From contig NIVC01002767.1 of assembly GCA_002269645.1 (NCBI GenBank), positions 1-64,000 of the forward strand: DNA of 64,000 nt. The letters are read 5' to 3'. Position numbers and translations under genes: made by a program. Below are positions 1 to 56,862 of this stretch, piece by piece (the first letter of the stretch is position 1; each line of letters begins with the position of its first letter). The DNA comes from Macrostomum lignano. Taxonomy: Eukaryota. The notes beneath the pieces are model-generated. The model was not told the DNA's origin, did no database searches, and saw only the letters and a list, made by a program, of their open reading frames with translations.

Positions 1-1270
1 ATACTCAGAAGTGGTTGTACTACTCGTGAGTAGCCAGCAATGTGCGTTCGGTAGAAATTTGCAAGTCCAAGGAAAGATTGTAGTTGTTTAACCGTTTGAG
101 GCACAGGAAGCTTGATTTTCTCGATGAGGCTGGGTGCGGGTCTAATGCCTTGAGCAGAAACCACAAATCCAAGATATTGTACCTCTGTTTTGGCAAAGAT
201 GCATTTTCGTAGTGAAATTCGCAATCCATGATGTCGTAACTTTTGGAAGAAGCGTTCGATTTCTTTGAGCATGCCGGTGAAGTCTTCGGCGATGAGCATG
301 ACGTCATCCAAGTAGGCAATCTGATTTGGAGAGTCAGCTGTTAACAATGCTACAAGACGGCACATTAAGCTAGGACTGGACTTGAGTCCTTGAGGTAGTC
401 GATTGAATTCCCAAAGTAGGCCGTTGGGTGCAATGAACGCAGTGTATTTTGTGCTTTCTGGATCGATCCGAACTTGGTAGAAAGCATCTGCTAGGTCACA
501 GAGTGTGTACAGTTTAGCGTTTTCAATCGATGTAGCAAATCCGGAATCTTAGGAGGTCGGATGCTAGGAGCACGAATTAGCTTGTTCAGTTTTCGGTAAT
601 CCGTCACGAGTCTTAGTTGTCGGCGACCTTGAGCGTCGAGCGTCTTCTTTTCCACGAGAAGACATGGACTTGAGTATTCCGATTCACTCGGACTGATGAT
701 TCCTTTTTGACGGAAGTTTTCGATGAGCTCATCAAACCGTTCTTGTAGTCCATGAGCGATTGGATAGGGTCTGGACGTGACTGGCTCAGAGTGTGGGTGT
801 AGATGCAGGTGAGCCGTGTATTGGGTAGAGCAACCCATGTCGGTTGGCAGTAGTGCCAAGACGTCACGGTACTTGTTCATTAGAGTAACTAATTGTTCAC
901 TCTGCTCGGTTGAGAGGTGCTGGTTGGCTTGTTTGAGTTGAGTACGGATCATGTCAGTCGTAGGTGCTTCTTGTTGCAGCGTGCGGAGACTGTTGATTTG
1001 AGCTGCTGGGCGCACGATGTTGTAGTCAGACATGTTAGCCAGATTCCAATGACTTGTTGAGGATGCAAGGTTTGCGTTGTCAGCGACGGGTTGGCAATTT
1101 CCACAGTGATAGTTTGTCCGTCCGGGTTGACAGAAACAAGGCAAGTTGGTATCATCAACTGGTGTTTCTGGATCGTGTGGTCCTTAGGGACGAACAGGAC
1201 AGGAATCGTTGGCTCATGTCGAGAAGAGAGTTTCAGCGTGACTTGGTGCGTTGTCTGTGGTGGTAACTCT
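1..1270 (-). CDS. pol: Pol linker domain and reverse transcriptase (truncated by window edge; frameshifted)
   Basis: SSPCLLVEKK, LRLVTDYRKLN, DLADAFYQV, FNRLPQGLKSSP, IAYLDDVML, YLGFVVS, LQSFLGLANFY. Confidence 0.9.
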
Positions 1271-1369
1271 AGTTGTTTTGCATCACCGCAGAGGTTTCTT
1301 GCAACTGTTGGATGGAGTTGAGCATCGCAAATTGCTCATTGCCAAGCTTAGCTGTCGCTTTCGAGTAGT

Positions 1370-1700
1370 CGAATTGTAGTGGTATTCCCAGTGACTTAAA
1401 GGTTTCTACTCCTAAGAGCAAATCATAGTCAGCGTCGGGGGTGTCGAGCACAAAGGCCGATATCTTGTGGTTGCGGCCATCGATTTCGAGATCAAAAGTG
1501 CCTTTTTGTTGAGGTTTAGTTGTTGTCCTCCTGCACAAATGGCGTTCATATTGGTGTCTTGTAGTGGTACTCGAAGCTTCTTGGCGAATGCCGGTGAGAT
1601 GCAGGAGATCGAGGCGCCGCTGTCAATGAGGGCGGTGCATCTGTGTCGAGTATGCGGTGCGTTACGGCACCACAGGTTGATCATAGTTGCTGTTGTTAGA
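1370..1700 (-). CDS. Retropepsin-type aspartic protease (frameshift at about 1505)
   Basis: ALIDSGASISCIS, then YDLLLGVETF in the next frame; in frame with the env TM and tail. Confidence 0.85.
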
Positions 1701-1959
1701 TGCTTCAAAACAAAGGCGTATGAGTAGTTTGCTGGCCATTTTGGAACTTTAGGTTCTGGCGGTGGTCTCCGTGGTGGCGGAAGGGTGGCGCGAAGTTCAA
1801 TCGTGTCGATGGGTGCCGAAGGTGTTGGCGCTTGTCTCGGTGGTATCAGTTGCTGTTGTTGGGAGTGGTCGTTTCGTGATTCCACTCGAGTTGGAGTTCG
1901 TTGTTGCCGCAGCACTTGTATAGTGTGCGTTCTGCCGTAACGGATGGTGCTGGCGACGC

Positions 1960-4910
1960 AGAGTCGGCCAAGATTGCACACGAAGATAATAACGGCAATG
2001 TAAACGATTACAGCTGCTGTTAAGACGAACTTTTCTTGATAGTTTGCGACTAGTCGATCCCAGTTGAATATCGACGAAGACCATAGATTGAAGAGAGCGA
2101 GTTTTGAGTCCAGGAATGCACTGTCAGCATGTGCTGTTCTGTGTCGTGTTCGATTCGGAAGTTTGAAAACTGTAATCAGAAAATCGCGAGTTTGCATGAA
2201 CTGGTGCATTAGGTCGGTCACCGTTATCGGACTACGAAGTGAAGTATAATTGATATCTCCCATAGGTTTGAAGATGCTTTCGGAGACTGAAGTTTGCAAA
2301 TCGGACAACCGATAGTTTTCATCGGATCTGACATTAGCAGTTGTGGGTTCAAACCTCGAAAAATTTAGTGTGGTCTTGAATAGCATCGATTGTTTAGGCA
2401 GGTAGTAGTACGGGAAGGCGTCGCATGAGATTAGAGCTGGAGTAGCTGTGGAGACAATACGAGTCGTTGTGTCCAAAAATCCAAGAACAGTATAATTTTG
2501 TAGACGGAATTCCAGTGGGGGACGCGTGAAGCATTGGTTCGTCTTATACTTTGGTTGGACAAAGCGAAATTGATGTAGAGGTTTGCACTGGTAGACGAAG
2601 AGATATCCAGCAATGGATCTAGCTCGCAAGAAAGGATCATTTAATAAGAGTCGAGCAGCGAGCGTTGGTTGTGTGTAGTATAACTGTCGGTTGTACTTGA
2701 GACTAGTTGCGTACATCATGCATTGAGTGGTTGCAAGCTGCCTCTGTACTTGGAGAAGGTCTTTTCGAGCTTTACTAGCAGCTCCTTGTAGTTGTCCAGC
2801 AAGAAGTTCAGCGGATGTGAACGTTGATGAAAGTTGCGCAGTAGAGTTGCCTGAAGGGGCTGCGATGGTTTTGTCGTCTGTGCTTCGCTTGTTGCGTGGT
2901 AGTAGTAGGAGATCCGGTTGACTGCCTTGGGGTTCGTGATGTGGAACTGCTAGATTCGTGTGAATAGAAGCCAGTTGTGGATTGGTTGTTGTCACTGGTG
3001 AGTTCGTGGTGAAGGTTGAGGTTGCAGACTTTGCTGGTGCACTGGTAGTGCTGCTAGAGGTTGAGGTTGTTGGCGGTAAAGTGGTGGTGGTACGAGGTTG
3101 TGTCGTCACTTTTGTTGTCGTCGTAGTTGGACCTGCTGTTGTTGTTGCTGCTGAGGTTGTAGCAGTTGTGGTTGTTGAAGTTGTCGGTGTTACGGTTGTG
3201 GTAGGTATTGTTGTCGTTGTAGTCGGTGGCATTGTCGTCGTAGCTGGTGTGTTGTCATTGTAGTCGGTGGTGTTGTCGTTGTAGTCGGTGGTGTTGTCGT
3301 TGTAGTCGGTGGTGTTGTCGTTGTCAAAATTGTAGTTGTTGGTGTTGATTTTGTAGTAGTTAGTATCGTAGTAGTTGGCGTCATTGTTGTAGAAGTGCTT
3401 GACGTCGGTGGATGATCAGGTCGCTCTTGTCGTAAAGGTTGCGGCGGTAGGAATTGTCGTGACTGAGTTGTCGTAGTGAAAGGATGTTGAGTCGTCGATT
3501 GCTGAACGGGTAATATTGTTGGTGGCGTTGGTAGTATCGCTGGTGGTGAACGACGTTTTTGTCTCGAAGAAGTGGTTTCTTCGCTAGTTTGAGGTTTTGG
3601 AGTAGCTTCTTCTAATGGGCTTCGTAAGGTGGCGAGAAATTCTGCTTCTTTGTTGTCGAGGATGTCTACGTATAGACCTTGCGTTGAAAGGTACAACGTC
3701 TTACGGACGCCAGTGCAGGTGAGAGTGTGAGTCGACGGCACTGGGTTGAAGGTTAGTCCCAATGTTTGATCATTAGTTAAGAACAAGCCGGAGTTTAAGT
3801 TGCCTTCAAGAGTACGAAATGGAAATGGTTTTTGTCTCGAAGAAGTGGTTTCTTCGCTAGTTTGAGGTTTTGGAGTAGCTTCTTCTAATGGGCTTCGTAA
3901 GGTGGCGAGAAATTCTGCTTCTTTGTTGTCGAGGATGTCTACGTATAGACCTTGCGTTGAAAGGTACAACGTCTTACGGACGCCAGTGCAGGTGAGAGTG
4001 TGAGTCGACGGCACTGGGTTGAAGGTTAGTCCCAATGTTTGATCATTAGTTAAGAACAAGCCGGAGTTTAAGTTGCCTTCAAGAGTACGAAATGGTTTTA
4101 AAGGACAATCAGCGAGTGGTGGAGGTGTCCAAATAAGATTTAGATGTCTTGGTCCTTTCACGTCAATTTGGTAGATTGCTTCAGTTTCCAAAGGATCCCA
4201 GGGGGATGTTAGTATCGGCAAAGGTAGGTTGAAAGCTCGCATTTCTTGTGCAGTTGTTTTAATTGTACAAAATTTGTCGGCGAGTTTGCAGTTGTCCATT
4301 GGGAAGGACAAAGATTCCATTTTTTGATCTGCTGTTGAGTAGGCTGGGATTCCGGTGATCACTGTTGTTACTATTTGTTCTGAATGTGAACCAGGAGTGC
4401 AACGCACGCATTTTGCGTGTTGAATGTCGATTGCAGGCGTTGGATAGACTGAGTTGACGCAGTCTTTAACACTAATGATCCATCAGGCGATAGCTTTGTT
4501 CGTGCCCAGTTTTCACAATCAGCTTGAGTGACTGGTTGCGGTTCCAACTCTACCAGGGCGGATGTCCAGGTTCTTATCACCGCCTTATCACATCTAATAG
4601 TGATTTTCTCGCGGAAACAGACAGTCATAACCAGGGAACTGGTTTCTACGTTTGTTGTGTAAAGTTCCAGTTTCAACGGGAGTGTCGGCGTTGTTTGGTG
4701 TTTGAGCTGTTCGCAACGGATCTCATGTGGTATCGTGAAAATTCTGGGATCTGGTTGTACGGACAGACCATTGGTGTGTCAATGAAGCCCTCGTGAGATT
4801 GTCTCTCAATCGATGGTGGGGTTGACGTCGTTACCGGCGTAGCGTTGGCTAGTGCGAAGAGTGAAGTTGCTAGGCACAGGAGAAAAAGTGTCAGTAGTGA
4901 TCGGCGAATT
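1960..4910 (-). CDS. env: Envelope glycoprotein, class III fusogen of herpesvirus gB/chuvirus type; broken by three single-base frameshifts
   Basis: Signal peptide RRSLLTLFLLCLATSLFALANA; gB-like motifs in order PMVCP, LELYTTNV, PVTQADC, LIW..DCPL, YLSTQGLYV, AGQLQ..TQC, PTLAARLLLNDPFLRARSIAGYLFVYQC, CFTRPPLEFRL; C-terminal TM FVLTAAVIVYIAVIIFVCNL. Confidence 0.8.
3556..4099. repeat. Exact in-frame tandem duplication, 273 bp period, inside env
   Basis: Peptide PFRTLEGNLN...EETTSSRQK occurs twice; copies begin at 3556 and 3829. Confidence 0.95.
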
Positions 4911-4929
4911 CCGACGGAAGCTTTCACGG

Positions 4930-6751
4930 TTTTCTCGCGGTTGTTGTTGCTGGTCGGTGGAGTGTAGGTGTCAGTCATTCTTTCAACCGTACAAAGGCGA
5001 ATAGAGTTGATAGTCGCAGCGGCAGTAGTCGGTTTTTTGAGTAAAGATTTCAGCTGCTTAGCGTCTCCAGAGTAGCGAATTTCGTTTCCAAAAGTCGGTG
5101 GGCGTTCATCAACTGTAGCAATGTGCATCAGTTGGGCAGACTCGGGAGCGTCGTGAGTCGTCCATCCAATCTGCGGCTGTTGATTCCATCCTGGGTGGGA
5201 CGTTTCAGGGTCCTGAGCAGTGATGGCGCGTATCGGTGGATATTGTTGTTGCGCAAATCTCGGAGGTTGTCGTTGATTGTTGGTGCCGTTGTATCGAGGC
5301 GGATAGCGTTGCTGAGGCCGGTTTCCATAGTCTTGACGGGGTGGAAATCGTGATTGTTGTGTCGCCGGTGGACCGTAGCCTTGTGTACGTTGGGCTCGTA
5401 GTCGGCACTGGTTAATAGAGTGTCCTGGTTTTCGGCAATAGTTACAGGTCAATCGTGGCGGTCCCTGCTGGTAACGATTTCGCGGGGCATCAGAGCCGTA
5501 TTGGGCTGTGTTCCTTCGATCACTTGAGTTAGGTCGGAAGGGACGAGGTTGTTGGTCATTCCTTCGACGACAGTCGGCGGCATAGTGTCCAGGTCGACCG
5601 CAATGATAACAAGTGGGCTTCTGTTGCATATTAGCGATAGGTGGCTTGGTTTGTGTTTGCAGGGAGGCAACCACCTGCTGATTGGCTTCCTTCGTCGTTT
5701 TTTCTAAGGTAGTTAGACGCTCTGTGAGAGCTTTCAAGTCAGTGCCATCAGAGTCCATGGTGGAGTCGCGGATTTGTTCGGCGCGGATGGCCTTGTTGAT
5801 TAGCGTACTTTCCGTGGTGATATTTTGCTTCAAGAGTTCTCGTTTGATGTAGGGTAGAGCATTGTTGATAGTCGTAGCCATCAGGGTAGCAAGGAAGTCT
5901 CGGTTGCGCTGGTCGATGACAGCTTGGTTCGCGGGTGGTGTTTCCGGACCGGCACCTTCCGGAAATTCTTCCGGTATTTCCGGCATAGCTGACCTGAGCT
6001 TTCGACGAATATCGGTGAAATAAGACAGGAACGGTTCGCCGTACTGTTGTTTCCGGGTTGTTGCATTATGCAGCGTTAGAGCCGAGCCAATGGTTACTTC
6101 CCGAAGGCGTTGAGACAGTGCCTCAATGGTGGCTGGATAAGAGGCTTGGACTGCGGCAGAGAGGCGACTGTATTCGAGTTTAAGAAGGTCATTCAGTAGT
6201 CGCGGGAAGAGCCGAATCTTTGCGTTCTCCGATAGTCCAAAGGAGCGTGTGATCAAGTCGAACTCTTCAGTGAAGGAGCGGAAGTCATGCATTTGGTCGA
6301 TTCCTTTCAGGGATTGACGAATTTCAGCAAGAGCAGTAGCTGAGACGGGATGGTTTGATTGCAATTGCAGACTGCGGTTCATAACGTCAGTAAGTTCACG
6401 GACAGCATTTGTCGCTGCAGCATCAACATGGGGAGCGCCGTCCTGATCAGCCATATCTAGAGTAGATTCTTCAGCAATATCGTTTGGGGCTGGTTGAACT
6501 GTTTCGTCCGCGTCTGTTAGGATGGAGCTGGGTGCTGGTGAGTGTGCACGGTTGTGTTCAAAATGATCCGCGAGAGGGTTATTAAACTCAACGTTATTTG
6601 GTATAAACAGGTTAGGTACTGGTGAACTACTTCGTGGGAGCTGTTCACCTATTTGGCAGTCAGAAGTTTCTAAATTTTGTTCAGGGGGTCTGTTAATATT
6701 TGAGCTTTGAAAAACTGGTCCGGAACGTAAATCTCGGACAGGTGTGGTCAT
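4930..6751 (-). CDS. gag: Gag (capsid plus two CCHC zinc knuckles), N-terminal part of polyprotein
   Basis: ATG at 6751 (MTTPVRDLRSG); helical capsid-like region with QQYGEPFLSYF; CYHCGRPGHYAADC and CNYCRKPGHSINQC; no stop before the env signal peptide. 3' boundary approximate. Confidence 0.85.
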
Positions 6752-7789
6752 TAACAAGAATTCAATCAATAATTTCAAGGCAACGATAGCACAAAAGTGT
6801 AACTAATAGCAAAGTAGAGTGTCAAATTCAAAGTGAGCAAACGGCAATGGCTTTCAGGGTTGCGGTTGGCGGACTGGCTGGGGAAGGGAGAAAAAGAGAG
6901 ACTGTGTAATTTTTTAACTGTGATCTGCGACGAGCTTTGAAAATCGAAGTAATTTTGAATTGAACTGCCTTTTGATTGGTTCTGAAACTTTGAATTTTGA
7001 AATTTTGAACTCGGAAATCTTGAATTGAACTGCCGTTTGATCGGTTCTGAAACTTTGAAACTGAATTTGATAAAGGAGCTCCTGAATGTTGGACTAGACG
7101 GACATCAGTGGTGGCCAATAAAATCGAATTTGTATCATTGAAGTCGGCAGTTTTCTTTTTCTTGAAGTCGGCAGTTTATTCTTTTCATGAATTCGGCAGT
7201 TTTCTTCTGAGAACTCGTTCTGGCTTTTGAATTTCGAATCTGAATTTTTTTTGAGCTATCTGACGAGTTTCAGCTAGGGGGTTGATTTCATAATTTTAAG
7301 CAAACGTAGAGAAATGTTTTTGTAGTTTTATAAATTTGCTATTTTTAATTTTTTGAAAATTTTATAATTTTTATTGATCGGACTGATCATTTTGTAACTT
7401 TAACATGATAAGAGCAGTACGGGTTGTACGAAATGAACTATAAGCAATGGTATTGTTTTTTGTGTTTTCAAGTTTTATTATTTTTTGCGATCTAATGATC
7501 ATTTTGAGTTTGTCGCAGGCTACGAAAATACTATGTGAATAGTCTAGCATAGATGAAGCGAAGAAGAGTAAATGGAGACGTGCGTTTTTTGAGGTTTTAA
7601 ATTTTTTATATTTTTTGTCGATCAAATGATCATTTTCAAAGTAGTGTTTACACCATGCAGTTTAAAGTAACAGAAGGTGAGCTGGAAATGAGACTACGAT
7701 CAAAAGACAATGAGAGAGTATAGTATATTTACAGGGCCCAAGGGGGGCTGATGCTGAGGCGATAGAAATTGCGGCTTATGGGGGGGGGA

Positions 7790-8598
7790 TCACTCAGGGC
7801 GACCACCGTATGCGGAGGCGAGAAGTTTGGGGCAAGGAGAGTCGCTAACGTCAAAACAGGGGTCGTCGGTAAAGTCGGGGTGGCCAACTATATGTTCCCG
7901 GTGGAACCGAGGGAGGGTGAGGAAATGAGCTTCAATGGCCTGACCTCTAGAACTGCCGCGATGGCGCGTCCAGGTCGACCAGAAGTGGTAGCGGAGTTGG
8001 TAAGAGGCAAGGTGGAACAGGCTTAAGGGTGAGTCGGAAACGGGGGGAACAAAGCTCTGGAGCAATAGTTCGTGGCGTTCACACTCCTCGTCATCAATTT
8101 TGCGACAGTATATTCGGCGGAGATCTTTGTAGCGAAGAGGAACGCCGGTATGAAAATCAACGCAACGCAGAGCGCGGAAGAGTAGCTCGAAGTCCTGGCC
8201 TCGGAGGGCTATATCGACGATTGCGGACTTAAAAGCTCCTTGCAGGGGCGGCAGATGGAGGCCTTCGAGATGGAATAGCATATTGTCTATCTGCCCGGGA
8301 TGTGGCATTGGAGGCAGTCATAAATGTGGGTCAGGTAGGAATCAGTAATGGTGAGGACAAACTTGGTTACGGGACCAGGGCGTCCATTACAACTGAAGAG
8401 ATCGTGAAACAGGGAATCCGGGATTGCGGGCTTGACGGTACGAGGAAACGGAAAGGGCGAGAGATAGGAGGGGTGATAGTAAATGAAACTGCGGCGATGT
8501 TGGCAATAATACGTCTGACACTGGCAATCAAATAGTGGGACATCATCGGGGGCAGTAAGGGATGCGGCTTCAGCGTAGATACGTGCGAAAGTAGTCAT
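7790..8598 (-). CDS. Accessory ORF(s) of unknown function in the retroelement leader (103 aa plus 172 aa, probably one ORF of about 270 aa with a -1 break)
   Basis: ATG at 8598; coding-like island in AT-rich leader; the two ORFs overlap by 22 nt with the same -1 offset as the pol breaks; Cys/His clusters. Confidence 0.55.
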
Positions 8599-8989
8599 GT
8601 TGAAATTATAATAAGTGAATTAAAGTACTTTAATTTAATTTACAGTGTTACCAAGTTGCTGGAACGGTAGAGACTGGATGTGAAGAGTGTCGTTCTTGCA
8701 GTTGGCTTCGGTAGTACTGGAGAGGAGATTAACTCAAGAGTGCAGGATTCTGTCAATCTATAGTGCTGCAAAAGTGCTAGTATAATAGTGCTGTTGATGG
8801 CGAATTCTGAAGGGAGTTGGGAACGGAGTTTGCGGCGTCCTCATTGGTTGGTTAGGGGGATTCCAAGCCATGCCTGGGAGACGGGGCGGTTATATTGGTG
8901 AAACTGAAGGGGGACGGGTAAGGCTTGCTACTCCTTCGCGACTCCGCTACTTCAAACACTCCCGGACGACGATTGCTCGACTATTTATT

Positions 8990-9271
8990 ATGGCTATGCA
9001 AGCTCAACTCGAAAGGACGAGGAAGACGGCAGATCAATGGTGGTGGCTCTGTCGGCGGTTGTGGGAGCTCGAATTGCTGCTGGAGGACGGCTGGCCCCGC
9101 GACACGAAGCGGGGTGCTCGGCGGGGTTCGCGACTCCTGTCAGCGTTCAGGCGGCTAGTCACACCCGTCCGTAAGTGGTGTGAGCGCCGCCTCGAATGGT
9201 GGCAGGAGCTCCAGCATGTGGAAGAAGAGATTGTCGCAGGACGCCGTTGGGGTAATTTTATCTTAGTTTAA
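8990..9271 (+). CDS. Antisense 93-aa Trp/Arg-rich ORF in the retroelement leader
   Basis: ATG at 8990 (MAMQAQLERTRK..WWWLCRRLWELELLL); GC-rich island flanked by AT-rich DNA. Confidence 0.4.
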   Translation: MAMQAQLERTRKTADQWWWLCRRLWELELLLEDGWPRDTKRGARRGSRLLSAFRRLVTPVRKWCERRLEWWQELQHVEEEIVAGRRWGNFILV

Positions 9272-11035
9272 TGTAATGAAGGGGCTAACCGACTGAAGGT
9301 AGGGGTAATCTTGAATTTAATTTTTTTGTAATTTTGTATAGTTTTTGTAGATATGCTAACGACAATTGAATTGCTTATTAGTGTACATATATTTATATTG
9401 TTATTGTTGCGATTACCCTTTTGTACGTGTGAATGTTTTTGTAAAAAAATACATAACTAACCTGTTTAACTATTTGAATTGATAAAGGCTGCTCAGGTTA
9501 GAGGGGGGCTATGGGTAGGGCTCAATCTTGACAAAGCAAAGGATGGATAGCGTAAAAAGTAGTTTTCGTAAAAACGGGAACAAGATGGTTAACAAAATAA
9601 GTAGGGCAAAAGCTGTATGGGGCACTAAGCATCTATTGCCTTTGGCAATAGGGAGATGAGAGAAAAGTAGAAGTTGTTTGGATCTTAATCCATCATACAA
9701 AAACGAGAAATGGCTAGGAAAAGAAAAAATTCCTGGGGAAATTGTTTATCAGAGATCGTGAAAAGGTCGCTGAACCGGAGGGTGAGTGGCAGGATGGAGC
9801 TGGCCTGGACAGTTTGATTAAGGAAAAGATTTTTTGTGGGAGATAAAGTTGAGTGATGGTTTTAATCAAGAAAAGAGGTCGCTCTGGGAGGTCGAGTAGG
9901 CACACAAAGTCTGATGTGGGCAGTTTGTTTAAGATTAATATTTATTGGAGGGAACTGGAGTTGATTAAACACGCAAGAAATTCCCAGCATCCCGAATGAT
10001 CCATAGAAGGCAACTGCCAGAATCAGCAATCCGAAAAAAAAAACTTGGGTCGATAAGGATTTGATGGATGGGGCTCGTGGGGTTTGCAAACAGTGAGTTT
10101 GGAGTGTTTAATCAAGAAAAATAATGAAAGGCTAGGCAAGCGGTCTACGAAAATCAGAAAAGTTTTCCGGATGAAGCACGCAGGTTCGGCAAACAATTGG
10201 TTGGGACTTTAATCAAGGAAAATGATGAATGGTCAGGCAAGCAGCCTGTCGGATAAGCGAAAAAAAATTTTTTTTTGTTGACAGCAAGAAATTGGTGGCT
10301 CCAGAGTTTGATTAATATTTGCTGAAGTGACTTTGTTTGAATAGCTCGTCAGGTTTTTTGCGTTTTCGTTCTTTCTTTCGGGCGCTTAACGGCGCAGAGA
10401 ATCTGAGATAAGCCAGTTTTCTAGATGTGGCCACACACTGGGAAAAACCGAGGAGGAAACGAATGGCTCAGTCACTTTGGAGAGTTTCAAGTTTACTTGA
10501 GGAAATCCAGAGTAGACTTTGCTATTCTATGGAAAAGCAGTGAAGAAAGAAGCGTCCAACATTAAATAAACTTGAACAATTGATGATGCCGCGGTCTTTG
10601 AAAAATCGAAGCTTGGAAGCTTGAACAATTGAGGATCCGAATAACTGAATTGAATTTCTGCATTGAAGCTCTGAGGCTTGAGAATAAGAACTCGATATCA
10701 GACGTTCGACGACGTTTCTTGAATTAGAGTGAAATTGAAATTGTTCCGGAACGATAATTTATTGACTTTCATGGATCCTTTGAATCTGAAAAAACTTGAA
10801 TCAGGTCTCAGTGCACTGGACAAAACTTAGAACCGATTTGAATTCTGAATTGGAATTTGAGAGCTCGTGATTTACGATTCATTCTTCGAATATGTATTAT
10901 TGACAGTCTCGAATGCTCAAAGGGGAGGGGGGGAGAAGCCAGTCCAACCGTTCACACCCATCAGCCACGCCTATAGCTGTCTACCCCATGCAGGGCATAG
11001 CGGCTATTGTGGTGAAACGCATCGGAGGAAAAGTA

Positions 11036-11049
11036 CGGTCAGGGAACCA
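11036..11049 (-). promoter_or_regulatory. Primer binding site complementary to tRNA-Glu(CTC)
   Basis: Minus strand TGGTTCCCTGACCG is the complement of the eukaryotic tRNA-Glu 3' end CGGTCAGGGAACCA (14 nt). Confidence 0.8.
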
Positions 11050-11050
11050 G

Positions 11051-11709
11051 TGAAATATTTTAAAATATATTTTCTTGTTCTTCTTCTGGTCTCTCACTTC
11101 TATGGCTCTTGTTCTACTTCAAATATCAATGTGAGAGCCAAATAACTGAGGCGGCGGATTCAACTGACTTTTCCTGATGATGCAAACACTTGATGGTAAC
11201 TTACAGACCGTTGTATTTGATGGTCACAATCTCGAGATGTTTTCTCACAAAATATAATGTCTAAGGTGGAATTCCAAATAAGAAGCTCGTTCGATTTAAG
11301 TCACAAGGTGTTTCTAGTTGTTCGGGTGAACCGAAGGTTCAGTCTATTGTGAAACGTGGATTGGGTGTTGGTTTGGCTTTAGTAAGTCGACTTATAAGTT
11401 TTGGTGTTTGGGTTGAGACCCTAACTGTGTCAATCAAAATAGTCAAACGAGGTAAGCTAGGAGAATGGCGAAGGAGAGGCAAGGGCGTGGAGAGGCGGAG
11501 CGAGCAGAAAAAAGGGGCGAGCTTCTTGCTTGGTTAACATGAGCTTTTATAGTACTTTTCAGTCTTGATCGCATTGGATGGTACATAACTGCTTTTCATT
11601 GGTTGAGGTTGGGGTCGTGTCCTCAGCTTTTGCTATTTGGAGCGCATTCATTGGTTAAAATACATTCAATCTGGATGGGAGCTTTCTAGAGCCAAAATGT
11701 ATCACTTCA
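11051..11709 (-). repeat. Candidate 5' LTR (about 659 bp)
   Basis: Ends CA one nt before the PBS; TGAA...TTCA inverted termini; contains three CCAAT boxes and a TATA box. The outer boundary is uncertain (alternative TG starts at 11715 and 11730). Confidence 0.65.
11544..11654 (-). promoter_or_regulatory. LTR U3 promoter: 3x CCAAT plus TATAAAAG
   Basis: CCAAT at 11650-11654, 11598-11602 and 11573-11577; TATAAAAG at 11544-11551; all on the minus strand in correct order. Confidence 0.6.
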
Positions 11710-12339: not shown

Positions 12340-13573
12340 GTCAGCAGTACCAGGTAGCACCGGTCAGTAGTACCAGGTAACACCGGTCAGTAGTACCAGG
12401 TAACACCGGTCAGTAGTACCAGGTAGCACCGGTCAGTAGTACCAGGTAACACCGGTCAGTAGTACCAGGTAGCACCGGTCAGTAGTACCAGGTAACACCG
12501 GTCAGTAGTACCAGGTAGCACCGGTCAGTAGTACCAGGTAACACCGGTCAGTAGTACCAGGTAACACCGGTCAGTAGTACCAGGTAGCACCGGTCAGTAG
12601 TACCAGGTAGCACCGGTCAGTAGTACCAGGTAACACCGGTCAGTAGTACCAGGTAACACCGGTCAGTAGTACCAGGTAACACCGGTCAGTAGTACCAGGT
12701 AGCACCGGTCAGTAGTACCAGGTAACACCGGTCAGTAGTACCAGGTAGCACCGGTCAGTAGTACCAGGTAACACCGGTCAGTAGTACCAGGTAACACCGG
12801 TCAGTAGTACCAGGTAGCACCGGTCAGTAGTACCAGGTAACACCGGTCAGCAGTACCAGGTAGCACCGGTCAGTAGTACCAGGTAGCACCGGTCAGTAGT
12901 ACCAGGTAACACCGGTCAGTAGTACCAGGTAGCACCGGTCAGTAGTACCAGGTAACACCGGTCAGTAGTACCAGGTAACACCGGTCAGTAGTACCAGGTA
13001 ACACCGGTCAGTAGTACCAGGTAGCACCGGTCAGTAGTACCAGGTAACACCGGTCAGTAGTACCAGGTAGCACCGGTCAGTAGTACCAGGTAACACCGGT
13101 CAGTAGTACCAGGTAGCACCGGTCAGTAGTACCAGGTAACACCGGTCAGTAGTACCAGGTAACACCGGTCAGTAGTACCAGGTAGCACCGGTCAGTAGTA
13201 CCAGGTAACACCGGTCAGTAGTACCAGGTAGCACCGGTCAGTAGTACCAGGTAACACCGGTCAGTAGTACCAGGTAACACCGGTCAGTAGTACCAGGTAG
13301 CACCGGTCAGTAGTACCAGGTAACACCGGTCAGTAGTACCAGGTAGCACCGGTCAGTAGTACCAGGTAGCACCGGTCAGTAGTACCAGGTAGCACCGGTC
13401 AGTAGTACCAGGTAACACCGGTCAGTAGTACCAGGTAACACCGGTCAGTAGTACCAGGTAACACCGGTCAGTAGTACCAGGTAACACCGGTCAGTAGTAC
13501 CAGGTAACACCGGTCAGTAGTACCAGGTAACACCGGTCAGTAGTACCAGGTAACACCGGTCAGTAGTACCAGG
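12340..13573. repeat. 23-bp minisatellite ccggtcagtagtaccaggta(a/g)ca, about 53 copies
   Basis: Near-perfect tandem array with two alternating variants. Confidence 0.97.
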
Positions 13574-14252
13574 ACTCCCCATCCAGGTCCTCCTCGCCGT
13601 CGTCAGGCCCGTAGCCCTCGCCGTTGTCAAAGTAGGCATCCACGTAGTCATTGTCCTCCAGCTCCTCATCGTTCTCGAAGACCCCAGCCTCCTCGTCTTC
13701 ATCGTCGTCCCGCTCCTCGCCGTCGCCTCCTTCGCCGCCGCCAGCGACAATCGTTGCCGACGTTGCCGCCTCCTTCGCCGCCTCAGCCGACGTCTCCAAC
13801 TGGCCGCCAACGACTTCATCGAGCAGCGCTGAAGCCGCCGCCTCTACGACATCCTGACGGCGCCGCTTGGCTCCGGCAGCGGCGGCATTCTTGGCCACGG
13901 TTGTCGCCGATGACTGCTGCTGCTGCTGTTGACGCCGACGCTTTCGGCGGAGCCAGTCGAGCTCGGCCGGAAAGTTCGCCGAGTTCGGCACCGCGGGCAG
14001 ACTGGCGCCGGCGCTGAAGCGGTCCTCCAGGTCTCGCTTAGCCGCCACCATGAACTTCAGGTCCTTGACCACTGTCGGCGGCGCCGGTCGCCTTGGCAAC
14101 GGCGGGTACAGCGTCTGCTCGTCGTCGCCAACTCTGACTCCGCCAAGCGGCATGTGGCCATCAGAGCGCATCAGGTTTTTGTAGGACTGGACTATGAAGC
14201 TGCCGCCGCCGCGCCCTCCGCGCCCGCCGCCCCGTCCGCCGCCTCTGCTCAT
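13560..14252 (-). CDS. POLR3G: RNA polymerase III subunit RPC7/Rpc31-like, intronless
   Basis: N-terminal RGG stretch, LYPPL motif, acidic tail with DYVDAYFDNGE. Confidence 0.8.
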   Translation of the reverse strand: MSRGGGRGGGRGGRGGGSFIVQSYKNLMRSDGHMPLGGVRVGDDEQTLYPPLPRRPAPPTVVKDLKFMVAAKRDLEDRFSAGASLPAVPNSANFPAELDWLRRKRRRQQQQQQSSATTVAKNAAAAGAKRRRQDVVEAAASALLDEVVGGQLETSAEAAKEAATSATIVAGGGEGGDGEERDDDEDEEAGVFENDEELEDNDYVDAYFDNGEGYGPDDGEEDLDGESWYY

Positions 14253-14864
14253 GCCGATGGCTGCAGCGGCATGAAGGTGAAAGCCCGCACTGTGCCTTCA
14301 GGAAGAAATTGCTAACACCATAGCACAGGCTGGGTGACTGGGTCATAGTGAAGACTTAGTCATACTGCAGACTGGGTCATAGAGCAGACTGGGTCGTAGC
14401 ACAGAATCGGTGACATCGGTGATCGGAGATTCAGTCATACATAAGACTTTGTCAATACGAATGTACTTGAGATAGGTCGTACTGGAGACTTGGTCATACC
14501 GGAGATTTGGTCATACTGGAGATTTGGTCATACAGGAGATTATTTAGTCTAACTAAAGACTATCGACCATACTGTAAATTTTCTTCGCACTGGAAAACTT
14601 ATAGATAATTGATATTTAAAGCCTATCAGTTTATTGAAGCAACAAAAATGAAATGAGATAATTAAGTCAAATGAGCGCATTAGAAATGCAGAGATAGAGG
14701 ATTAAAAAATATTGTATTTGTCTGCCCTTTGATGAAGGCAAAACGATTACAGGTTTACAATTATAAATTAGAATTAGTAACCGTAACAGACTACTGACCA
14801 GCTAACCCGAATTACTTGGGTACTGATTTACTCTCAATCCATATCTCAGCACTGTCACCTGCAA

Positions 14865-15097: not shown

Positions 15098-16249
15098 CTA
15101 GAGCACGACAACCTTGACCTTCTTCTTCTTGGCCTTCGGCTGATTTGCAGCCCCGTCGCCATCCGGGCGGGTCTCCAGAATCGATGGCAACAGAGGAACC
15201 TCGTCATCGGCGCCGCCTCCACCGGACGACAACGGCAGGGCGACTTCGGCGGCCGACACCTCCGCCGCTCGACGGCGCTGCATCAGCGGGCAGTCGCGCT
15301 TGAAGTGCTCGACGCTGGAGCACAGCAGGCAGCCGCCGCCCTTGGGGTAGAGGCCGCGAGGATTGTCGGGGCACGACCGGGACAGGTGGCCGCTGCGGCC
15401 GCACACGAAGCAGCTCGCGAACGGCAGGTCCGGCTGCTGCTGCTGGCCGGCCGACGTGTCCGAACTGCTGCCCGGCCGGGGCATCTTCGGACAGGCAGAG
15501 AGCGCGTGTTCGCTGGAGCCGCAGCGAAAGCAAATGCTAAAGAGAACGGCGGTCAGAGTTGCTTTCTGTTGGTCTGCAGTGATTCTAATGGCTTGGATAC
15601 TAATAGGGGATTCTAATGGCTTGGATACTAATAGGGGAATCTAATGGCTTGGATACTAATAGGCAATTCCAATGGCTTGGATACTAATAGGGGATTCTAA
15701 TGCCTTGGGTACTAATAGGGGAATCTAATGGCTTGGATACTAATAGTGGATTCTAATGCCTTGGGTATTTAATGCAAACGGGAAATTCAAAGGCAACTCT
15801 TGTGAATGTTCGGGCCTGAGATACGCAGAAACCGCAGGGATCAGTGCCTGCCATAGACAGTCCAGCCTTGGCACTTACGCAGCCGCGCCGCTGGCACTGG
15901 CGGCGCCGCTCACTTCGGGACAGTCGCTGACCAGGTGGCCCGGCTGCCGGCAGTGAAAGCAGACTCTGTCCGCCTCCCGGTGCCGTTTCCGCTGCTGCCG
16001 GCGCCGCTCAGACCCGGCCCGTTTCCACTGGCGCAGCTCGGCCTCGGAGCGGAGTACGCGCTCGTACGAGCCGATGCGGACCACGTAGTGACCATTTTTC
16101 AATCGGGTGATCACCCGTCCGCCTGCAGCAGCTGGAGAAGATTTAGACTTGGACTTGGCTGTGAGCAAATCGGCTTTCATCTGAGCCCAGCTGCTGGCCT
16201 CGTTTGGCTTTTTCTTGTTGGCCTGGCCGCCCCTGGCGTAGCGCGTCAT
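15098..16249 (-). CDS. ZCCHC9: Zinc finger CCHC domain protein 9; exons 16249-15879 and 15536-15098
   Basis: MTRYAR start, ASSWAQMK, four knuckles (CFHCRQPGHLVSDC, CFRCGSSEHALSAC, CFVCGRSGHLSRSC, CLLCSSVEHFKRDC), DNPRGLYPKGGGC; GT-AG intron keeps frame. Confidence 0.88.
15580..15770. repeat. Intronic minisatellite ggattctaatggcttggatactaatagg
   Basis: About six tandem copies in the ZCCHC9 intron. Confidence 0.85.
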
Positions 16250-37735: not shown

Positions 37736-40700
37736 CTATTCGGCCAAGGCCGCCGGGCTCGGACGGCACCGGCGGGGTGGCAGTTGGCGGCTGGGGAAAG
37801 CAGCAGTGCGTTGGGCCGCCGGCGGAAAGTCGCCAGCTGAAGAGGCGGGGTCGGCGGCAGAGTGCGCTGGGGGCGGCTCAGCGGGCAGCCGCGGCGGGCG
37901 GCCTCTCGGTCGCAGGGCCGGCGTCGGGAACGGGTCGACCGCGTCGATGACGGCTGGCTTCAGTCTCTCCACTGACACTCGGTCGCGTCGAGTGCCCAGG
38001 TCCAGCAGGAAAGCTTTGGCGTCCCGCTCGAGGACCTTGAACGGGCCGTCGTAAGGTCGCTGCAGCGGAGGGCGGTGGCCGTCGCGCCGGACGAAAACGA
38101 ACTGGCAGGCGTCGAGGGCGGCCGGCCAAGCTGTGGGGCGGCTGCCGTGACGGGACGTCGGCGTCGGCCGGAATGCCTGGACGGCGCCGCGGAGCCGGCG
38201 AGGAACTGTTCGTAGTCGCCGGCCGGCGGGCTGGGCTGCAGGCACTCGCCAGGCACGCAGAGGGGCGCTCCGTAGACCAGCTCGGCCGACGATGCCGGCA
38301 GGTCCTCCTTGGGGGCCGTCCGGATGCCGAGCAGCACCCAGAGTAGCTCGCTGACCCAGGCTGGTCCGGCCAGTCGCGTCATGAGGGAGGACTTCAGCTG
38401 CCGGTGGAAACGCTCGACCAGCCTGTTCGCCTGCGGATGGAAAGCCGTTGTCCGGTGGAGCTGCATTCCGAGGAGCCGTGAGACGTTGGACCACAGCTGC
38501 GACGTGAACTGCGAGCCGCGGTCCGAGGTGCTGTCGCTTGGCACTCCAAACCTGGCGATCCAGTGGGCGATGAAGGCGGAGGCGCACGCGGCCGCGGAGG
38601 TGTCGGTCATCGGGATCGCCTCCGGCCACCGGGTGAAACGGTCCAAGATGGTCAGCAAGTGCGTGAAACCTTGCGAAGGCGGCAGCGGCCCCACCAGGTC
38701 GACGTGCACGTGGGCGAAGCGCTGGTCCGGGACGCGGATATTGCCAACCGGGGCGGCGACGTGCCGGTGCACCTTGGCCGTCTGGCAGGCGACACAGGAC
38801 CGGGCCCACCGGCTAACGTCCTTGTTCATGCCGGCCCACACGAACTTGGCGGCCACGAGGCGCCGCGTGCTGCGGACGTGGGCGAGGCCGTGGATGGTGT
38901 CGAAGACGGGGCGTCTGAAATTCGGCGGCACCAACGGGCGCGGCCGGCCTGTGGAGATGTCGCAGAGCAGGGCGACACCGGGGCTGAGCTGCAGCGGCTC
39001 AAGTTGGAGGCTGGCGTCCGCCTGACTGGCCGTATCGGCCGCCTGCGCCTGGGCCATGGACGCGAAATCCACGCCAGGGAGCAGCCGGGGCTGCACGGAA
39101 GAGACCGTGCAGCGGGACAGCGCATCTGCGACCGAGTTGTCCTTGCCCGCACGTGCTGGATGTCCGTGGTGAACTCGGACACGTAGGCCAGGTGGCGCTG
39201 CTGTCGGGCGGACCACGGGTCCGACATCTTGGACATGGCGGCGACCAGCGGCTTGTGGTCCGTGAAAGCGGTGAACGCGCGGCCCTCCAGGAAATAGCGG
39301 AAGTGCCGCACCGCCAGGTACAGGGCGAGCAGCTCGCGGTCGAACGCGCTGTACTTCTGCTCGGGCGGGCGCAGCTGCCGGCTGAAGAAGGCGAGCGGCT
39401 GCCAGGCGCTGCCAACCCGCTGCTCGAGCGCTGCCCCGACCGCGGTATCGGAGGCGTCGACGGTGAGGGCGATGGGCGCGTCTGGCCGCGGGTGCGCCAG
39501 CATGGCGGCGGAGGCCAGCGCCCGCTTCGCTCCATCGAAAGCGGCGGTCAGCTCGGGCGTCCACCGGACGAACTTCTCCTTGCCGGCCATGGCCGCATGG
39601 ATGGGGCGCAGCAGCTGGGCGGCGCGCGGCACGAAGCGGTGGTAGAAATTCACCATGCCGGCGAACTCCTGCAGGCCCTTGACGGTGGCTGGCGGTGCGA
39701 ATCTGGCGATGCGTCGACTTTGGCGGGCAGCGGCACGGCTCCCTGGGCGCTGTTCCGGTGGCCGAGGAAGTCGATCTTGGCCGGGTTGACGATAAGGCCG
39801 TTGTCCATCAGGCGCTGGAAAAGCGTCCGCAAGTGCTCCAGGTGCTGCTGCGGGCTGCGGCTAGCGACCAGGAAGTCGTCTATGTAGGCGAAGACAAAGT
39901 CCAGGTCTTGGCAGACGGAGTCCACCAACCGCTGGAAGGCCTGGGCGGCGTTCTTGAGACCGAATGGCATTCGCAAGAACTCGAAGAGGCTGAACGGGGT
40001 GGTGACGGCGGTCTTGGGCACGTCGGCTGCGGCCACGGGCACCTGGAGGTAGCCACGAGCCAGGTCGATCTTGGAGAAAACCGAGCAGCCGGCTAGGCGC
40101 ACTGAGAAGTCCTGGATGTGCGGCACCGGGTGGCGGTCGGGCACCGTGGCGTCGTTTAGCCGCCTGAAATCGCCGCAGGGCCGCCAGCCGCCGGAGGCTT
40201 TTGGGACCATATGCAACGGCGAGGACCAAGGGCTCTTGGACCGGCGAACGATGCCGAGTTGCTCCAGGAGCCGGAACTCCTCCTTGGCCACCGCCAGCTT
40301 GTCCGGCGGCAGGCGGCGAGGGCGGGCATGGACCGGCGGGCCCTGCGTCGGGATGTGGTGCTCCACCCCGTGTCGTGGCTCAGCCCGCTGGAAACTGGGC
40401 TCGGTGAGGGCGGGGAACTCGGCCAACAGCTGGCTGTACGGGTCCGCAGCGGCGGCTGCGGCGAGTTGCAGTCCGGGCCTCGCGCCGTCCAGCAGGTGCA
40501 CGCTGGCGAGCGAGCGGGCGTCCAGGAGGCGCCGGTGCGGCAGGTCCACCAGCAGGCCGTGGTGCCGCAGAAACTCGGCGCCGATCAGCGGGCGGGAGAC
40601 CTCGGCCAGAAGGAACGGCCAGGAGCAGCGCCGGATGCCGAGGTCCAACGTGAGCTGGCGGGTGCCGAAGGTTCGGATGAGGCTGCCGTTGGCTGCGAAA
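37736..40700 (-). pseudogene. pol: Pol (PR C-half, RT, RNase H, IN) of the CsRn1-type element; frameshifted; PR N-half at 46910-47086
   Basis: LVDTGAEVS (right part), WSSPLHMVPK, PFGLKNAAQAFQR, YIDD, TDASD, FTDHKPL, HVHVDLVGPL, VERFHRQLK, YDGPFKVL. Confidence 0.9.
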
Positions 40701-42093
40701 CCCGGTGTAAAAAGTGGGGTCAAGCGGACGTCTTTCGGACCCCGACGGGTCCTCATTGGGGTTGCGTCTGCTTTAGGAAAAAATATCTAGTTTTTACATT
40801 AAATCACTCTAAAGAGCCATATTTCAGTAACTTCATGGCTAAAAAGTTTGTCATCTTTGTACTTATGTGGGTCCGTTATTCGTCCCTAATGGTCCGTTTT
40901 GATCCGACTCCTCAAAAAATGCAATTTTTTTCTAACGCCGTATAAATGTCCCTTTTGCTGTGATTTCGGTTAGTTTTGGGTTTATTTTCAAGTATTCACC
41001 TTTGTGTACTGACAACTAGCACTTTTTGACAGTCCGATTTAAAAAGATACGTCAGATGAAAAGTGACCCTTGATAATTCTCCAGTTGCATAATTTACTAC
41101 TTGTGATAGTAGAAAAGTTGGCGAAGTTTCTTTTTCAAACTTTTGTGTTTTGTGTTTTGGGGCTTCGAGATTGCAGTCGCGGGACATTAGCCTTTCAGTT
41201 GAAAACAAATTATTCTTTTGTGTGAATTTATATTTTCGTTTTTTATAGACTCATTTTTAAACTATCTTTTAAATCTACTCGTACATTTTTGATTGGGGTG
41301 TCGCGTAAAATGCATCAACAGTAAGTCTGACCATGCCTTACTACTTTTGACAGTAGGGTTCACCAAAAAGGACAATACCCTGAGTGATAACTGCTTTTTA
41401 TTAAAAATACCAAATTAACTAGTTATTAATTGCGTACAATCACTTTTCGATTATGTAAATATTTTGCAGTGCCAGAGTTTTTGAATTTGGAAAAGAAGTT
41501 GGTCAAATTTTCAGTGCGCACCTGATCCGTGTAAATGCGAGTTTAGCAACGTTGGGCGTGGGTTTAAAACTCAGAAATTTCGGGAAAACAGAAAGTGAAT
41601 GAGCTCAATGTAGCACTGAGCCGCCGAAGGGCTGGCGCCAGATTTTGGTGGACCAGGGCCCCGAAGCCTTCGCCAGCGCCATCAAGGAGCAATATATATG
41701 TAAAGAAAACTCAGAATCAACATTTTGAGTTTTCTTTACTTAATTGTTGTCAAGCGAGCAACCCTATCGCAATATGTTACAGAGATCGTGTTAGATTTCC
41801 CGCGGGTGATCCGATAGATTGCTTGCTTCTTCCCGCAGATCAGACAGAAGGGTCCAGTCCTCTAAAAAGGAACATTTAAATGCGTACCTATGATTCTTGT
41901 TTACGGGTAAAAATATGACTTAATTAGTTATGATACTGGTTAACGATTCTTTCATTACAATCAACGCGTGGTAGTGTCCTTAGAGATTTAGTATATTTAG
42001 ATTAAGATTAGTGTATTTGGATATTATATTATATTATATTTGGATATTAATACATGCAACTTATATTATTAAGCCATAGAGTACGCTAGATAG

Positions 42094-47041: not shown

Positions 47042-47086
47042 GCCGGCCGTCGAGCTGCTCACTGACGGCCGGCCTGCCCGTTTCCC
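47042..47086 (-). promoter_or_regulatory. -1 ribosomal frameshift signal of the CsRn1-type element
   Basis: G GGA AAC at 47080-47086, 6-nt spacer, perfect 10-bp stem GCCGGCCGTC/GACGGCCGGC. Confidence 0.8.
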
Positions 47087-47757
47087 TGGAAGCTGCACGG
47101 GAGTTCCCAGTGGCGGGCTTTCGCACCGAAACGACGATGAAAGAAACACAGGCCGTCGTCCGGGCGGTGCTGCTGGGGCCGTCTCTGTCTGGCGCCCTTG
47201 CTGGCCGCAAAGACTGCCGGCTGGGCTTGCTGGGCTGGGTCTGCCGCCGGCTGCTGGACGGAGGCCGCCACCAGCTGCGGCCGGCTGGCCCAGAGCTTGT
47301 CTGCCTCCTGCGCTGCTGCCCGGGGGTCCGCGAAACTGACGGTTGTCATGGCCATGCGTACTTCCGGTGGCAGCTGCTGGCGGAACAGCTCATCGAACAG
47401 CAGGCAGGGGCGGTGGTTCCCCAACAGGGCGAGCATCTCGTCCATCAGCTCGGAAGGCCGCCGGTCGCCGAGGCCGGACATGCTGAACAGGCGACTGGCC
47501 CGCTGCTGAGGAGTCAAATCGAAAGTGCTGTTGAGGCGCTCCTTTAGCTGAGAGTACTTGTTCGCCTCCGGAGGAGCCTCGAGCACATCGAGCAGGCGCT
47601 CTGCTGTCTGCTGGTCAAGAGCTGCGACCAGATGGGCGTACTGAGTGATGCCTCTCAGGGTAAACTGAGCTTCGGCCTGGATGAACCAGGCTCGAGGCTG
47701 GGCCGCCCAAAACGTGGGCAGCTTCAGGGACACAGCAGAGTCGGTTTGTTGGGCCAT
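47059..47757 (-). CDS. gag: Gag of the CsRn1-type element
   Basis: MAQQTDSAVSLKLPTFW, WFIQAEAQF, LGDRRPSELMDEML, CFFHRRFGAKARH(W)ELPC. Confidence 0.85.
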   Translation of the reverse strand: MAQQTDSAVSLKLPTFWAAQPRAWFIQAEAQFTLRGITQYAHLVAALDQQTAERLLDVLEAPPEANKYSQLKERLNSTFDLTPQQRASRLFSMSGLGDRRPSELMDEMLALLGNHRPCLLFDELFRQQLPPEVRMAMTTVSFADPRAAAQEADKLWASRPQLVAASVQQPAADPAQQAQPAVFAASKGARQRRPQQHRPDDGLCFFHRRFGAKARHWELPCSFQGNGQAGRQ

Positions 47758-47988
47758 TGCACGAAATGGCTGCGTAGGGCTCACCAATGAAGCGGCTTGC
47801 GAGTGGAAGCTTGAAAAGCAGCAAGCGAGCAAAAGATCTTGTGTATATTTGTTTAAGCATAGTCTTTATAGGGAGGTGTGAGTCAGAGCGAACTGGCTGG
47901 CTGGGCAAAACTCCCCAGCAGCCAGGCGTGCAGGGGCCTGTGCACAGGCGGGCCCCGCTCTCAACCGTGCACCAGTCTGGCCGCCACA

Positions 47989-55538: not shown

Positions 55539-56332
55539 GACTTCTGAGTGCAAAATCTTTGAACATGGCCCGGCTTACCGCACTTCCAGCATGTCACAAC
55601 TCTGCGTCTGTCGCCGCTCTGACGATGATCCTGGTCCTTTGACTCCCAGCGGCTGAGCTTGTTGGACAGCTCCTTCAGGGACCGTTGAATTCCGACTGCA
55701 AAGGCTTCGGGAACCTCAGCAGCTAGAGCCGTAGCAGTGCCTCCTTGCGACTGTATCGATTCCACGAATCGCGCTGTTTCAACTGTATCAGCGAATGTCG
55801 CCTTTGCCTGCATCTGCGTCTGCATTCGCACAGCTGGGTCCCTCAATCCGGATAGAAACCGACCTTTGAGAAGCTCGTCCTTCGCTGTCACCGACGTCTC
55901 CTGCTCGGCACCTGCTTTCGTCTCCATCAGACTCGGGAACGCACACTTTGCCGCAACGATCAGGGCATCGGAATAGTCTGCAACCGACTGACCGTCCTTT
56001 TGAGTCAGATTGAAGAACTGCGCCTGCAGCTCAGCAGAGGATGTTGATGGCCGAAATCGATTTTTCAGAGCCTTCTCAAAGTCGTCGTAGGACAGGGAAG
56101 CATCCAAATTGTTGGCCGCTTGATATGATTTGTCGTCGAGGAATGACAGCAGAGCATTCTTGCGCTGATCGACAGGAAGAGATGATGCGAAATTGTTGAA
56201 TCGTGCCAGCCAAAGTTCAAAGTCTTGTCCATGCTGGTATTGAGGCGGCCGCAAAAACATGTTGACAAAACTAGCTTGGGGCTGAGTCACCGCCACTGTA
56301 GGGCTCTCTGCACTGCCTTCATTTTCAGTCAT
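55490..56332 (-). CDS. gag: Gag with one CCHC knuckle
   Basis: MTENEGS.., FELWLARF, QKDGQSVADY, CWKCGKPGHVQRFC. Confidence 0.9.
   Translation of the reverse strand: MTENEGSAESPTVAVTQPQASFVNMFLRPPQYQHGQDFELWLARFNNFASSLPVDQRKNALLSFLDDKSYQAANNLDASLSYDDFEKALKNRFRPSTSSAELQAQFFNLTQKDGQSVADYSDALIVAAKCAFPSLMETKAGAEQETSVTAKDELLKGRFLSGLRDPAVRMQTQMQAKATFADTVETARFVESIQSQGGTATALAAEVPEAFAVGIQRSLKELSNKLSRWESKDQDHRQSGDRRRVVTCWKCGKPGHVQRFCTQKSGNFDGAATAGVPFRK
55498..55538 (-). promoter_or_regulatory. -1 ribosomal frameshift signal
   Basis: G GGA AAC at 55532-55538 in gag phase, 6-nt spacer, stem GGAGCGGC/GCCGTTCC. Confidence 0.8.
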
Positions 56333-56862
56333 AGCCGCCGCTGCCACCAATGTAAGAACAAGCGAAAACGAGAAATTGGCTTAAGGCGTAGACCGACTCT
56401 TGGCTGCCCAGGGCGCCAAGGCATTCACTTATATATTATCATTGTACAGCGAGCAAATGTACATAAGAGCTAGTGAACGTGCGCACACGCAATCAACTAA
56501 GCAAACCATCTTACACAGGTACATGTATACACATAACAAATAGCTAGCTGCCGTTACATAAAGGTTATGTATATGTACGTACAGTAGTATATGTACGTAA
56601 GTTAAATTATAGTTGAATTTACCTGGCTATCCATGGGGAGGGGAGCTGGGCGAACTTACATGTACAATCTTTCTTACATGTACATATGTAATTCTTCGTT
56701 TGCTGCATTGATCCACTTGTTGGCCTCTATTGTAGCTCGTAGTACATGTATACGTGTACAGTACTTGCTTTCGTCTATTGTCTTAACTGTCTCAGCCTTC
56801 TGTGTGCCTAACTGCTAGTTTGGCTCTGCCTCGCCCAAGCTCTCAATGAGTGCGCCTCGTGG

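Follow-up and report, generated by a model that had tools for sequence, protein, structure and literature searches.

What lies between the 5′ long terminal repeat (LTR) and gag of a retroelement whose leader exceeds four kilobases? The question is raised by one end of contig NIVC01002767.1 of the free-living flatworm Macrostomum lignano (assembly GCA_002269645.1), of which positions 1 to 64,000, hereafter the window, were analyzed. An LTR retrotransposon lies there on the reverse strand, and 4,299 nucleotides (nt) separate the end of its 5′ LTR from the gag start codon at 6751. A preliminary description of this DNA had placed the LTR at 11709–11051, the primer-binding site at 11049–11036, and gag 4.3 kb away, all of which proved correct, and had proposed that the leader encodes a Cys/His-rich accessory protein. 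We found in the leader an optional cassette with two accessory genes that converge and are under selection; the element itself is a recently active gag-env-pol errantivirus.

Two convergent accessory genes in an optional cassette

The larger gene, on the element strand, encodes 269 amino acids (aa). It had been described as a pair of sense open reading frames (ORFs) at 8598–7790. The two frames of the window (8598–8287 and 8317–7790) and the Cys/His motifs quoted from them exist, but in four natural copies (C4335, C292, C1512, and C362), out of 11 near-identical loci spanning the gene, the frames form one unbroken 269-aa ORF; the remaining seven loci carry one to five small frame-breaking insertions or deletions (indels) and zero to four substitutions. 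The frame break in the window is probably an assembly error for three reasons. First, 23 of 35 frame-breaking indels in 18 loci adjoin runs of at least three like bases. Second, the apparent halves of one insertion disagree: C292 is unbroken and C759 has two breaks, while the window has one and C2231 has five. Third, short-read contigs of three of four runs span the region with one gap relative to the window, at a position that was not listed.

Selection was measured as the ratio of nonsynonymous to synonymous substitution rates (dN/dS). All six comparisons with diverged copies, which are not independent of each other, gave values of 0.23–0.37 with upper 95% limits of 0.34–0.69; gag gave 0.15–0.28. 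Four other frames of the same stretch gave about 1–1.5, and in the mirror frame, which has wobble positions in common with the gene, 8–9 stop differences had accrued. Values among the youngest copies (0.44 and 0.90) had wide limits and were uninformative. On these comparisons, the 269-aa gene is under purifying selection, and that a genuine accessory gene is present is very likely. The gene is absent from some copies, yet it is not randomly disrupted, which would have spoken against the preliminary proposal.

The second gene, a 93-aa antisense ORF that had been overlooked, gave dN/dS of 0.07–0.12 in three diverged comparisons. Its homologue is an 86-aa sense ORF behind pol in the distant gag-env-pol family C1674 (31% identity over 71 aa, pairwise E 1e-8); a database search yielded no homologue among three candidates. 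A longer, 133-aa start of the antisense frame was rejected, as it is broken in C292, C1512, and C362 while the 93-aa frame is kept. In the closest sister family, C1672 (L181:5686-5940) and C247 (L179:5663-5917) carry an 84-aa antisense leader ORF that BLAST does not match to the 93-aa gene.

The cassette is missing from three of five full-length copies (C695, C172, and C2365), which have 42 or 140 unrelated bases instead, and it occurs both in young copies and in an 83%-identical subfamily. For eight copies, midpoint-rooted trees built on gag and on the 5′ leader disagree, which suggests recombination and loss. In two diverged copies, C2121:59763-60960 (L043) and C87 (L044), part of the 269-aa gene is tandemly duplicated as two different variants, which suggests template switching. 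C1753 and C1176 (L154, L129-L139) hold arrays of truncated units of about 3.4 kb that run from the LTR through the leader to the antisense gene, whose ORF contains in-frame stops in these units.

The element, its family, and its expression

The age of the family and its ownership of the leader follow from the LTRs and their flanks. Of the five full-length copies obtained, C1512 and C362 measure 16.9 kb, and C695, C172, and C2365 about 14.8–15 kb. In C1512, C362, and C695, the 5′ and 3′ LTRs are identical (653/653) and flanked by 4-bp target duplications; the LTR pairs of C172 and C2365 match at 634/652 and 635/652 positions (97%), with unmatched flanks. The flanks of 17 further LTRs differ, and six 5′/3′ pairs on separate contigs have a common 4-bp flank. 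The contig ends before reaching the 3′ LTR of the window's copy, whose 5′ LTR has the same 4-bp flank as a 3′ LTR on C2231. Because of these identical pairs, target duplications, and differing and matching flanks, the family is young and recently active and the leader is its own. Whether the LTR belongs to this element, which the preliminary description had left to be checked, is thereby settled in its favor.

Paired LTRs, target duplications, and a tRNA primer site, together with the order protease–reverse transcriptase–RNase H–integrase (the first two by Pfam, an integrase-like end read by eye in sibling pol ORFs), characterize a Ty3/gypsy LTR retrotransposon, and by its layout the element belongs to the gag-env-pol group. 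The primer-binding site complements the 3′ terminus of the host's tRNA-Glu, as found by a pattern search, and all three loci scanned hold tRNA-Glu. The env region of the window comprises a signal peptide, a Thr-rich spacer, and a membrane anchor; its match to Monjiviricetes_fusion (E 0.003) falls under the Pfam cut-off, while the env relative in C1674 exceeds it (E 5e-10). For every gag/env/pol junction at least one natural copy keeps the frame open, and in a sister family uninterrupted frames of 2,859–2,866 aa extend across env, from which we infer a single gag-env-pol polyprotein. Within env lies an exact 273-bp tandem duplication (window 3555-4095); as the contigs of all four runs end there, it may belong to this copy or this assembly alone.

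Behind pol, the family has a 318-aa sense ORF and an 86–92-aa antisense membrane/Cys ORF, so that the full element carries four extra orphan ORFs, selected or conserved, on both sides and both strands. The 318-aa ORF (L040:2642-3598 in C2365; also in C695, C172, C362, and C1512) is 91–100% identical in 14 near-complete loci, and its leads in the Atlas language-model search stay below 0.9, C48/C57 cysteine-protease clusters among them. The 269-aa and 318-aa ORFs were considered as paralogues and rejected as such (E 0.25). Selection on the reading frame, the apparently gB/rhabdovirus-type env, and the four extra ORFs together support the earlier view of an accessory protein in a complex retrovirus-like genome.

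Related families also carry extra ORFs. In four gag-env-pol families, an antisense ORF of 84–92 aa near the 3′ LTR encodes a single membrane helix, in many cases with a Cys cluster after it. Among 10 sister-family copies read, three (C717, C1639, and C2112) have, after pol and before the 3′ LTR, two tandem RING-finger-like, Cys-rich ORFs; four of these proteins were scanned, of which one exceeded the Pfam cut-off for RING (C3HC4), two fell below it, and one was unmatched. C2112 has an 864-bp LTR and a primer site equal to those of the published M. lignano element, to whose family it probably belongs. C1674, C4628, C1189, and C368 carry behind pol an orphan ORF family of 253–260 aa (40–81% identical) and another of 105–113 aa.

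The leader holds 36 start codons, and these make ribosome scanning through to gag implausible. A strong splice-acceptor-like site before gag is kept in eight of eight copies, and 25 of 1000 leader shuffles yield such a site; no stable RNA structure was found after the primer site (z +1.4). About 30% of M. lignano genes are trans-spliced to a spliced leader (PMC8629364). To bypass the 4.3-kb leader, the element would likely use cis-splicing or spliced-leader trans-splicing onto the acceptor that precedes gag; a weaker acceptor would likely serve the 269-aa gene, and the 93-aa gene would likely need an antisense transcript.

Table 1. Coordinates of the element, its leader genes, and related ORFs (window positions unless a locus is named)
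Feature	Position	Strand	Remarks
5′ LTR	11051..11709	-	659 bp, TG...CA; at least 40 genome matches
Primer-binding site for tRNA-Glu	11036..11049	-	14 nt
Non-coding 5′ leader part	9644..11035	-	common to copies with and without the cassette
Optional 2.1-kb accessory cassette	7505..9643		carries the 269-aa and 93-aa genes
Antisense 93-aa Trp-rich accessory ORF	8990..9271	+	missed in the preliminary description
Weaker splice-acceptor-like site (putative)	8807..8824	-	next ATG starts the 269-aa ORF; kept in 4/8 other copies
269-aa accessory ORF	7790..8598	-	split in the window near 8290 by one frame break
Candidate degenerate SOCS box, residues 186-240	7880..8044	-	BC-box-like helix, then Cul-box-like stretch
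Strong splice-acceptor-like site	6878..6895	-	15/15 pyrimidines + CAG; about 126 nt before gag ATG, no ATG between
gag (zinc knuckles)	4673..6751	-	runs on into env signal peptide; zf-CCHC E 2e-8
env-like region, candidate class III fusogen, between gag and pol	1623..4778	-	Thr-rich spacer, membrane anchor; several frame breaks in the window
Protease + reverse transcriptase	1..1680	-	cut by contig end; Asp_protease_2 E 3e-5, RVT_1 E 7e-22
Antisense 84-92-aa ORFs	L040:1823-2083; L182:1700-1954; L186:8184-8444; L190:2173-2430
RING-like ORFs	L196:741-1409, 1545-2111 (C2112); L194 (C1639); L192:776-2099 (C717)
253-260-aa ORFs	L149:5953-6717; L190:963-1724; L186:8924-9706

Possible functions of the 269-aa protein

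Searches for relatives of the 269-aa protein led back to the element itself. Among 548 candidates of 147–471 aa there was no homologue, and none in viral or metagenome contigs; the one match among 1.84 billion representatives was a chimeric gene model of the same element, labelled Macrostomum lignano. A Pfam scan of the 269-aa and 93-aa proteins gave no match, nor did Foldseek searches of PDB and viral structures with the full 269-aa model, which is poor (pLDDT 40). On this poor model, VIA fold rows for the middle part were generically helical-solenoid, with Z of 6.7 or less.

We tentatively propose that the protein could act as an adaptor that brings substrates to a host ubiquitin ligase, a reading that we hold possible rather than probable. 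Its helical middle part would bind a host restriction or silencing factor, and its degenerate C-terminal SOCS box would recruit Elongin BC and a cullin so that the factor is degraded, as lentiviral Vif does. The protein would act in trans, and copies without the cassette could therefore still spread.

Several findings point in this direction. First, the top three Atlas hits were SOCS_box/ASB17-like clusters, at 0.93, 0.91, and 0.90 (192, 176, and 175 of 256 features shared). Second, residues 193–202 have the spacing of host BC boxes and a predicted helix, with Ala in place of Cys; two host BC-box matches (L096 and L102) also have Ala at that position, as does Vif. Third, HH-align aligned this stretch to the host BC box, the windows containing it being the best of 14, and 9 of 300 shuffles reached the score. 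Fourth, the box stretch folded alone gave three helices (pLDDT 75) near the C-terminus, where SOCS boxes sit. Fifth, compared to the rest of the gene, the box has fewer amino-acid changes (8/55 versus 58/169, p 0.006) at an equal synonymous rate in C2121a, and it is the most constrained part of the protein in two related comparisons. Elongin C is present in the host genome; Elongin B was not found there with a motif pattern as query. The selection on the gene and the RING-finger-like ORFs behind pol in sister families also count in favor of the proposal.

A number of results weigh against the adaptor proposal. The Atlas recognition value was 1627, below 2300 and in the tool's weak-score zone, and 4–10 in 100 shuffled proteins reach an Atlas score of 0.9. 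The HH-align probability was under 1%. Pfam SOCS_box matched neither the 269-aa protein at E 10 nor its listed genome-scan copies, and a profile of nine host boxes gave −2.3 bits, which 311 of 2000 shuffles equal. The BC-box Cys is replaced by Ala, and of the Cul5-box motif LP-phi-P (PMC4812663) the first Pro is missing, the second position being Thr in all copies covering it. Foldseek searches of PDB and viral structures with the C-terminal model gave no match, and the VIA rows were generic, with no SOCS chain among those listed; the full-length model is the poor one noted above. In C1325 the box is also poor in synonymous changes (p 0.008), so that recombination or constraint on the RNA could account for that comparison. 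Finally, no splice joints appeared in four contig sets covering the cassette, three of them guessed to be RNA, with strand and level not readable.

Because the profile and Cul5-box tests failed, the protein is not classed as a SOCS-box protein, nor, with no Pfam match to ankyrin repeats, as an ASB protein, though it may work like one. The extra ORFs of the 10 sister-family copies contain no canonical SOCS box. A recurrent BC-box-like match in the genome was set aside, as it lay in unrelated repeat DNA.

It is also possible, if rather doubtful, that the 269-aa protein, though a genuine accessory protein, has another role, such as Rev/CERV-like export of unspliced genomic RNA, particle assembly, or blocking of a host factor, the likeness to a SOCS box being due to chance. 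Selection on the gene is established while the box fails two profile tests, and the long, intron-like leader poses an export problem that Cer1 of Caenorhabditis elegans solves by means of CERV (PMC10309623); Cer1 is, moreover, sister to a flatworm errantivirus (PMC13524379). However, C695 lacks the cassette and has identical LTRs, so the protein is unneeded in cis; its content of Lys is 2.2% and it has no Arg-rich RNA-binding stretch; and the Atlas matches converge on one family.

The original idea, that a zinc-binding Cys/His protein suppresses small-RNA silencing directly, now seems unlikely. An N-terminal cluster (C27/C32/H34) and C70, C98, C146, H150, and C173 are mostly kept. However, Cys and His make up 10% of the residues, and C95, H99, C165, and H176 vary among copies. 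Since several of the residues quoted in the preliminary description vary, the motifs do not amount to a clear zinc finger, and Cys/His richness is a weak choice of key feature. There is no Pfam zinc-finger match, the ligand pattern of a known finger is not conserved, the conserved Cys residues are scattered, and the C-terminal helices are the most constrained part.

We consider it very unlikely, and largely refuted, that the cassette is a captured fragment of a host or foreign gene, or a nested insertion, of no use to the element. The cassette is optional, and its G+C content (54–59%) is higher than that of the surrounding leader (34–42%). However, all 42 listed genomic matches of the 269-aa protein lie on contigs holding this family, with no host paralogue among them; purifying selection acts between element subfamilies at dS 0.3–0.6; and the 93-aa gene has its homologue in a second element family. 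That the leader results from a faulty assembly join, or that the ORF is open by chance, as the many small indels might suggest, is refuted by the same layout in separate insertions with different flanks and in full-length copies, and hardly any weight is left to it.

Known systems and significance

Accessory genes against host defenses are a hallmark of complex retroviruses and have rarely been described in invertebrate LTR elements. Plant Ogre elements have an extra ORF (ORF1) upstream of gag, and as an analogy the earlier comparison with them holds in this respect, but the element itself fits published flatworm GAG-ENV-POL errantiviruses (PMC13524379). Such errantiviruses, with an HSV/gB-type env, were described from Platyhelminthes, Nematoda, and Bryozoa by Chary and Hayashi (PMC13524379), and the present element has in common with them the Ty3/gypsy pol, the gene order, a putative class III fusogen (below the cut-off in the window), LTRs, a tRNA primer site, and many young copies. 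Compared to the sole M. lignano element in the table of that paper, which has an 864-bp LTR, another primer site, and a length of about 10.6 kb, it has a 653–659-bp LTR, a tRNA-Glu primer site, and a length of 14.8–16.9 kb. The main text of that paper does not mention accessory, RING, ubiquitin, antisense, or leader; a longer version has "accessory" twice.

Compared to HIV-1 Vif and SOCS-box/ASB adaptors (PMC2880568, PMC4812663), the proposed likeness consists of a BC-box helix and a cullin box after a substrate-binding part, in an accessory gene of a retroelement. Unlike in Vif, to which no relation in sequence or fold was found, the box is degenerate, the adaptor role is putative, and the gene stands before gag. 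CERV of Cer1 (PMC10309623) is another novel accessory protein encoded by an invertebrate LTR element with an env, and it is made from spliced RNA, as proposed here; CERV is required for RNA export, whereas the present cassette is optional and stands on its own in the leader. LTR elements of bdelloid rotifers (PMC5408684) also have extra ORFs common to distant families, but their ORF3s are recognizable enzymes or env, in contrast to four orphan ORFs on both sides and both strands here.

Elsewhere in the window are two other, unrelated Ty3/gypsy elements (51648-56380; 37736-40786 + 47059-47865), one with an open 1,308-aa pol frame and one frameshifted. Host genes beside the insertion encode an acidic-tailed protein (13560-14297), presumably akin to the RNA polymerase III subunit RPC7, and a CCHC zinc-knuckle protein (15098-15640). 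A multicopy repeat at C271:301600-305599 (L199), with packaging-ATPase-like and capsid-like ORFs, looks by eye like a Polinton or virophage.

Flatworm gag-env-pol errantiviruses have already been published; no description of their accessory genes was found in the largely open-access literature searched, though supplements or subscription papers may contain one. The same literature does not describe the RING ORFs of the sister families, seemingly including the published M. lignano element, and this holds apart from the adaptor proposal. Natural copies with and without the leader cassette coexist in a tractable laboratory animal. Taken together, a Vif-like Elongin BC/cullin adaptor in a swappable cassette and RING E3 genes in sister families would mean that flatworm errantiviruses independently reached lentiviral ubiquitin-ligase hijacking, and would point to an as yet undescribed restriction system that acts at the protein level in the stem or germ cells of flatworms, a picture that we offer tentatively, as one that may well prove wrong. 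If the adaptor proposal is true, a pull-down of the 269-aa protein would reveal which host factor restricts these elements, and ubiquitin hijacking by retroelements would not be confined to vertebrate retroviruses.

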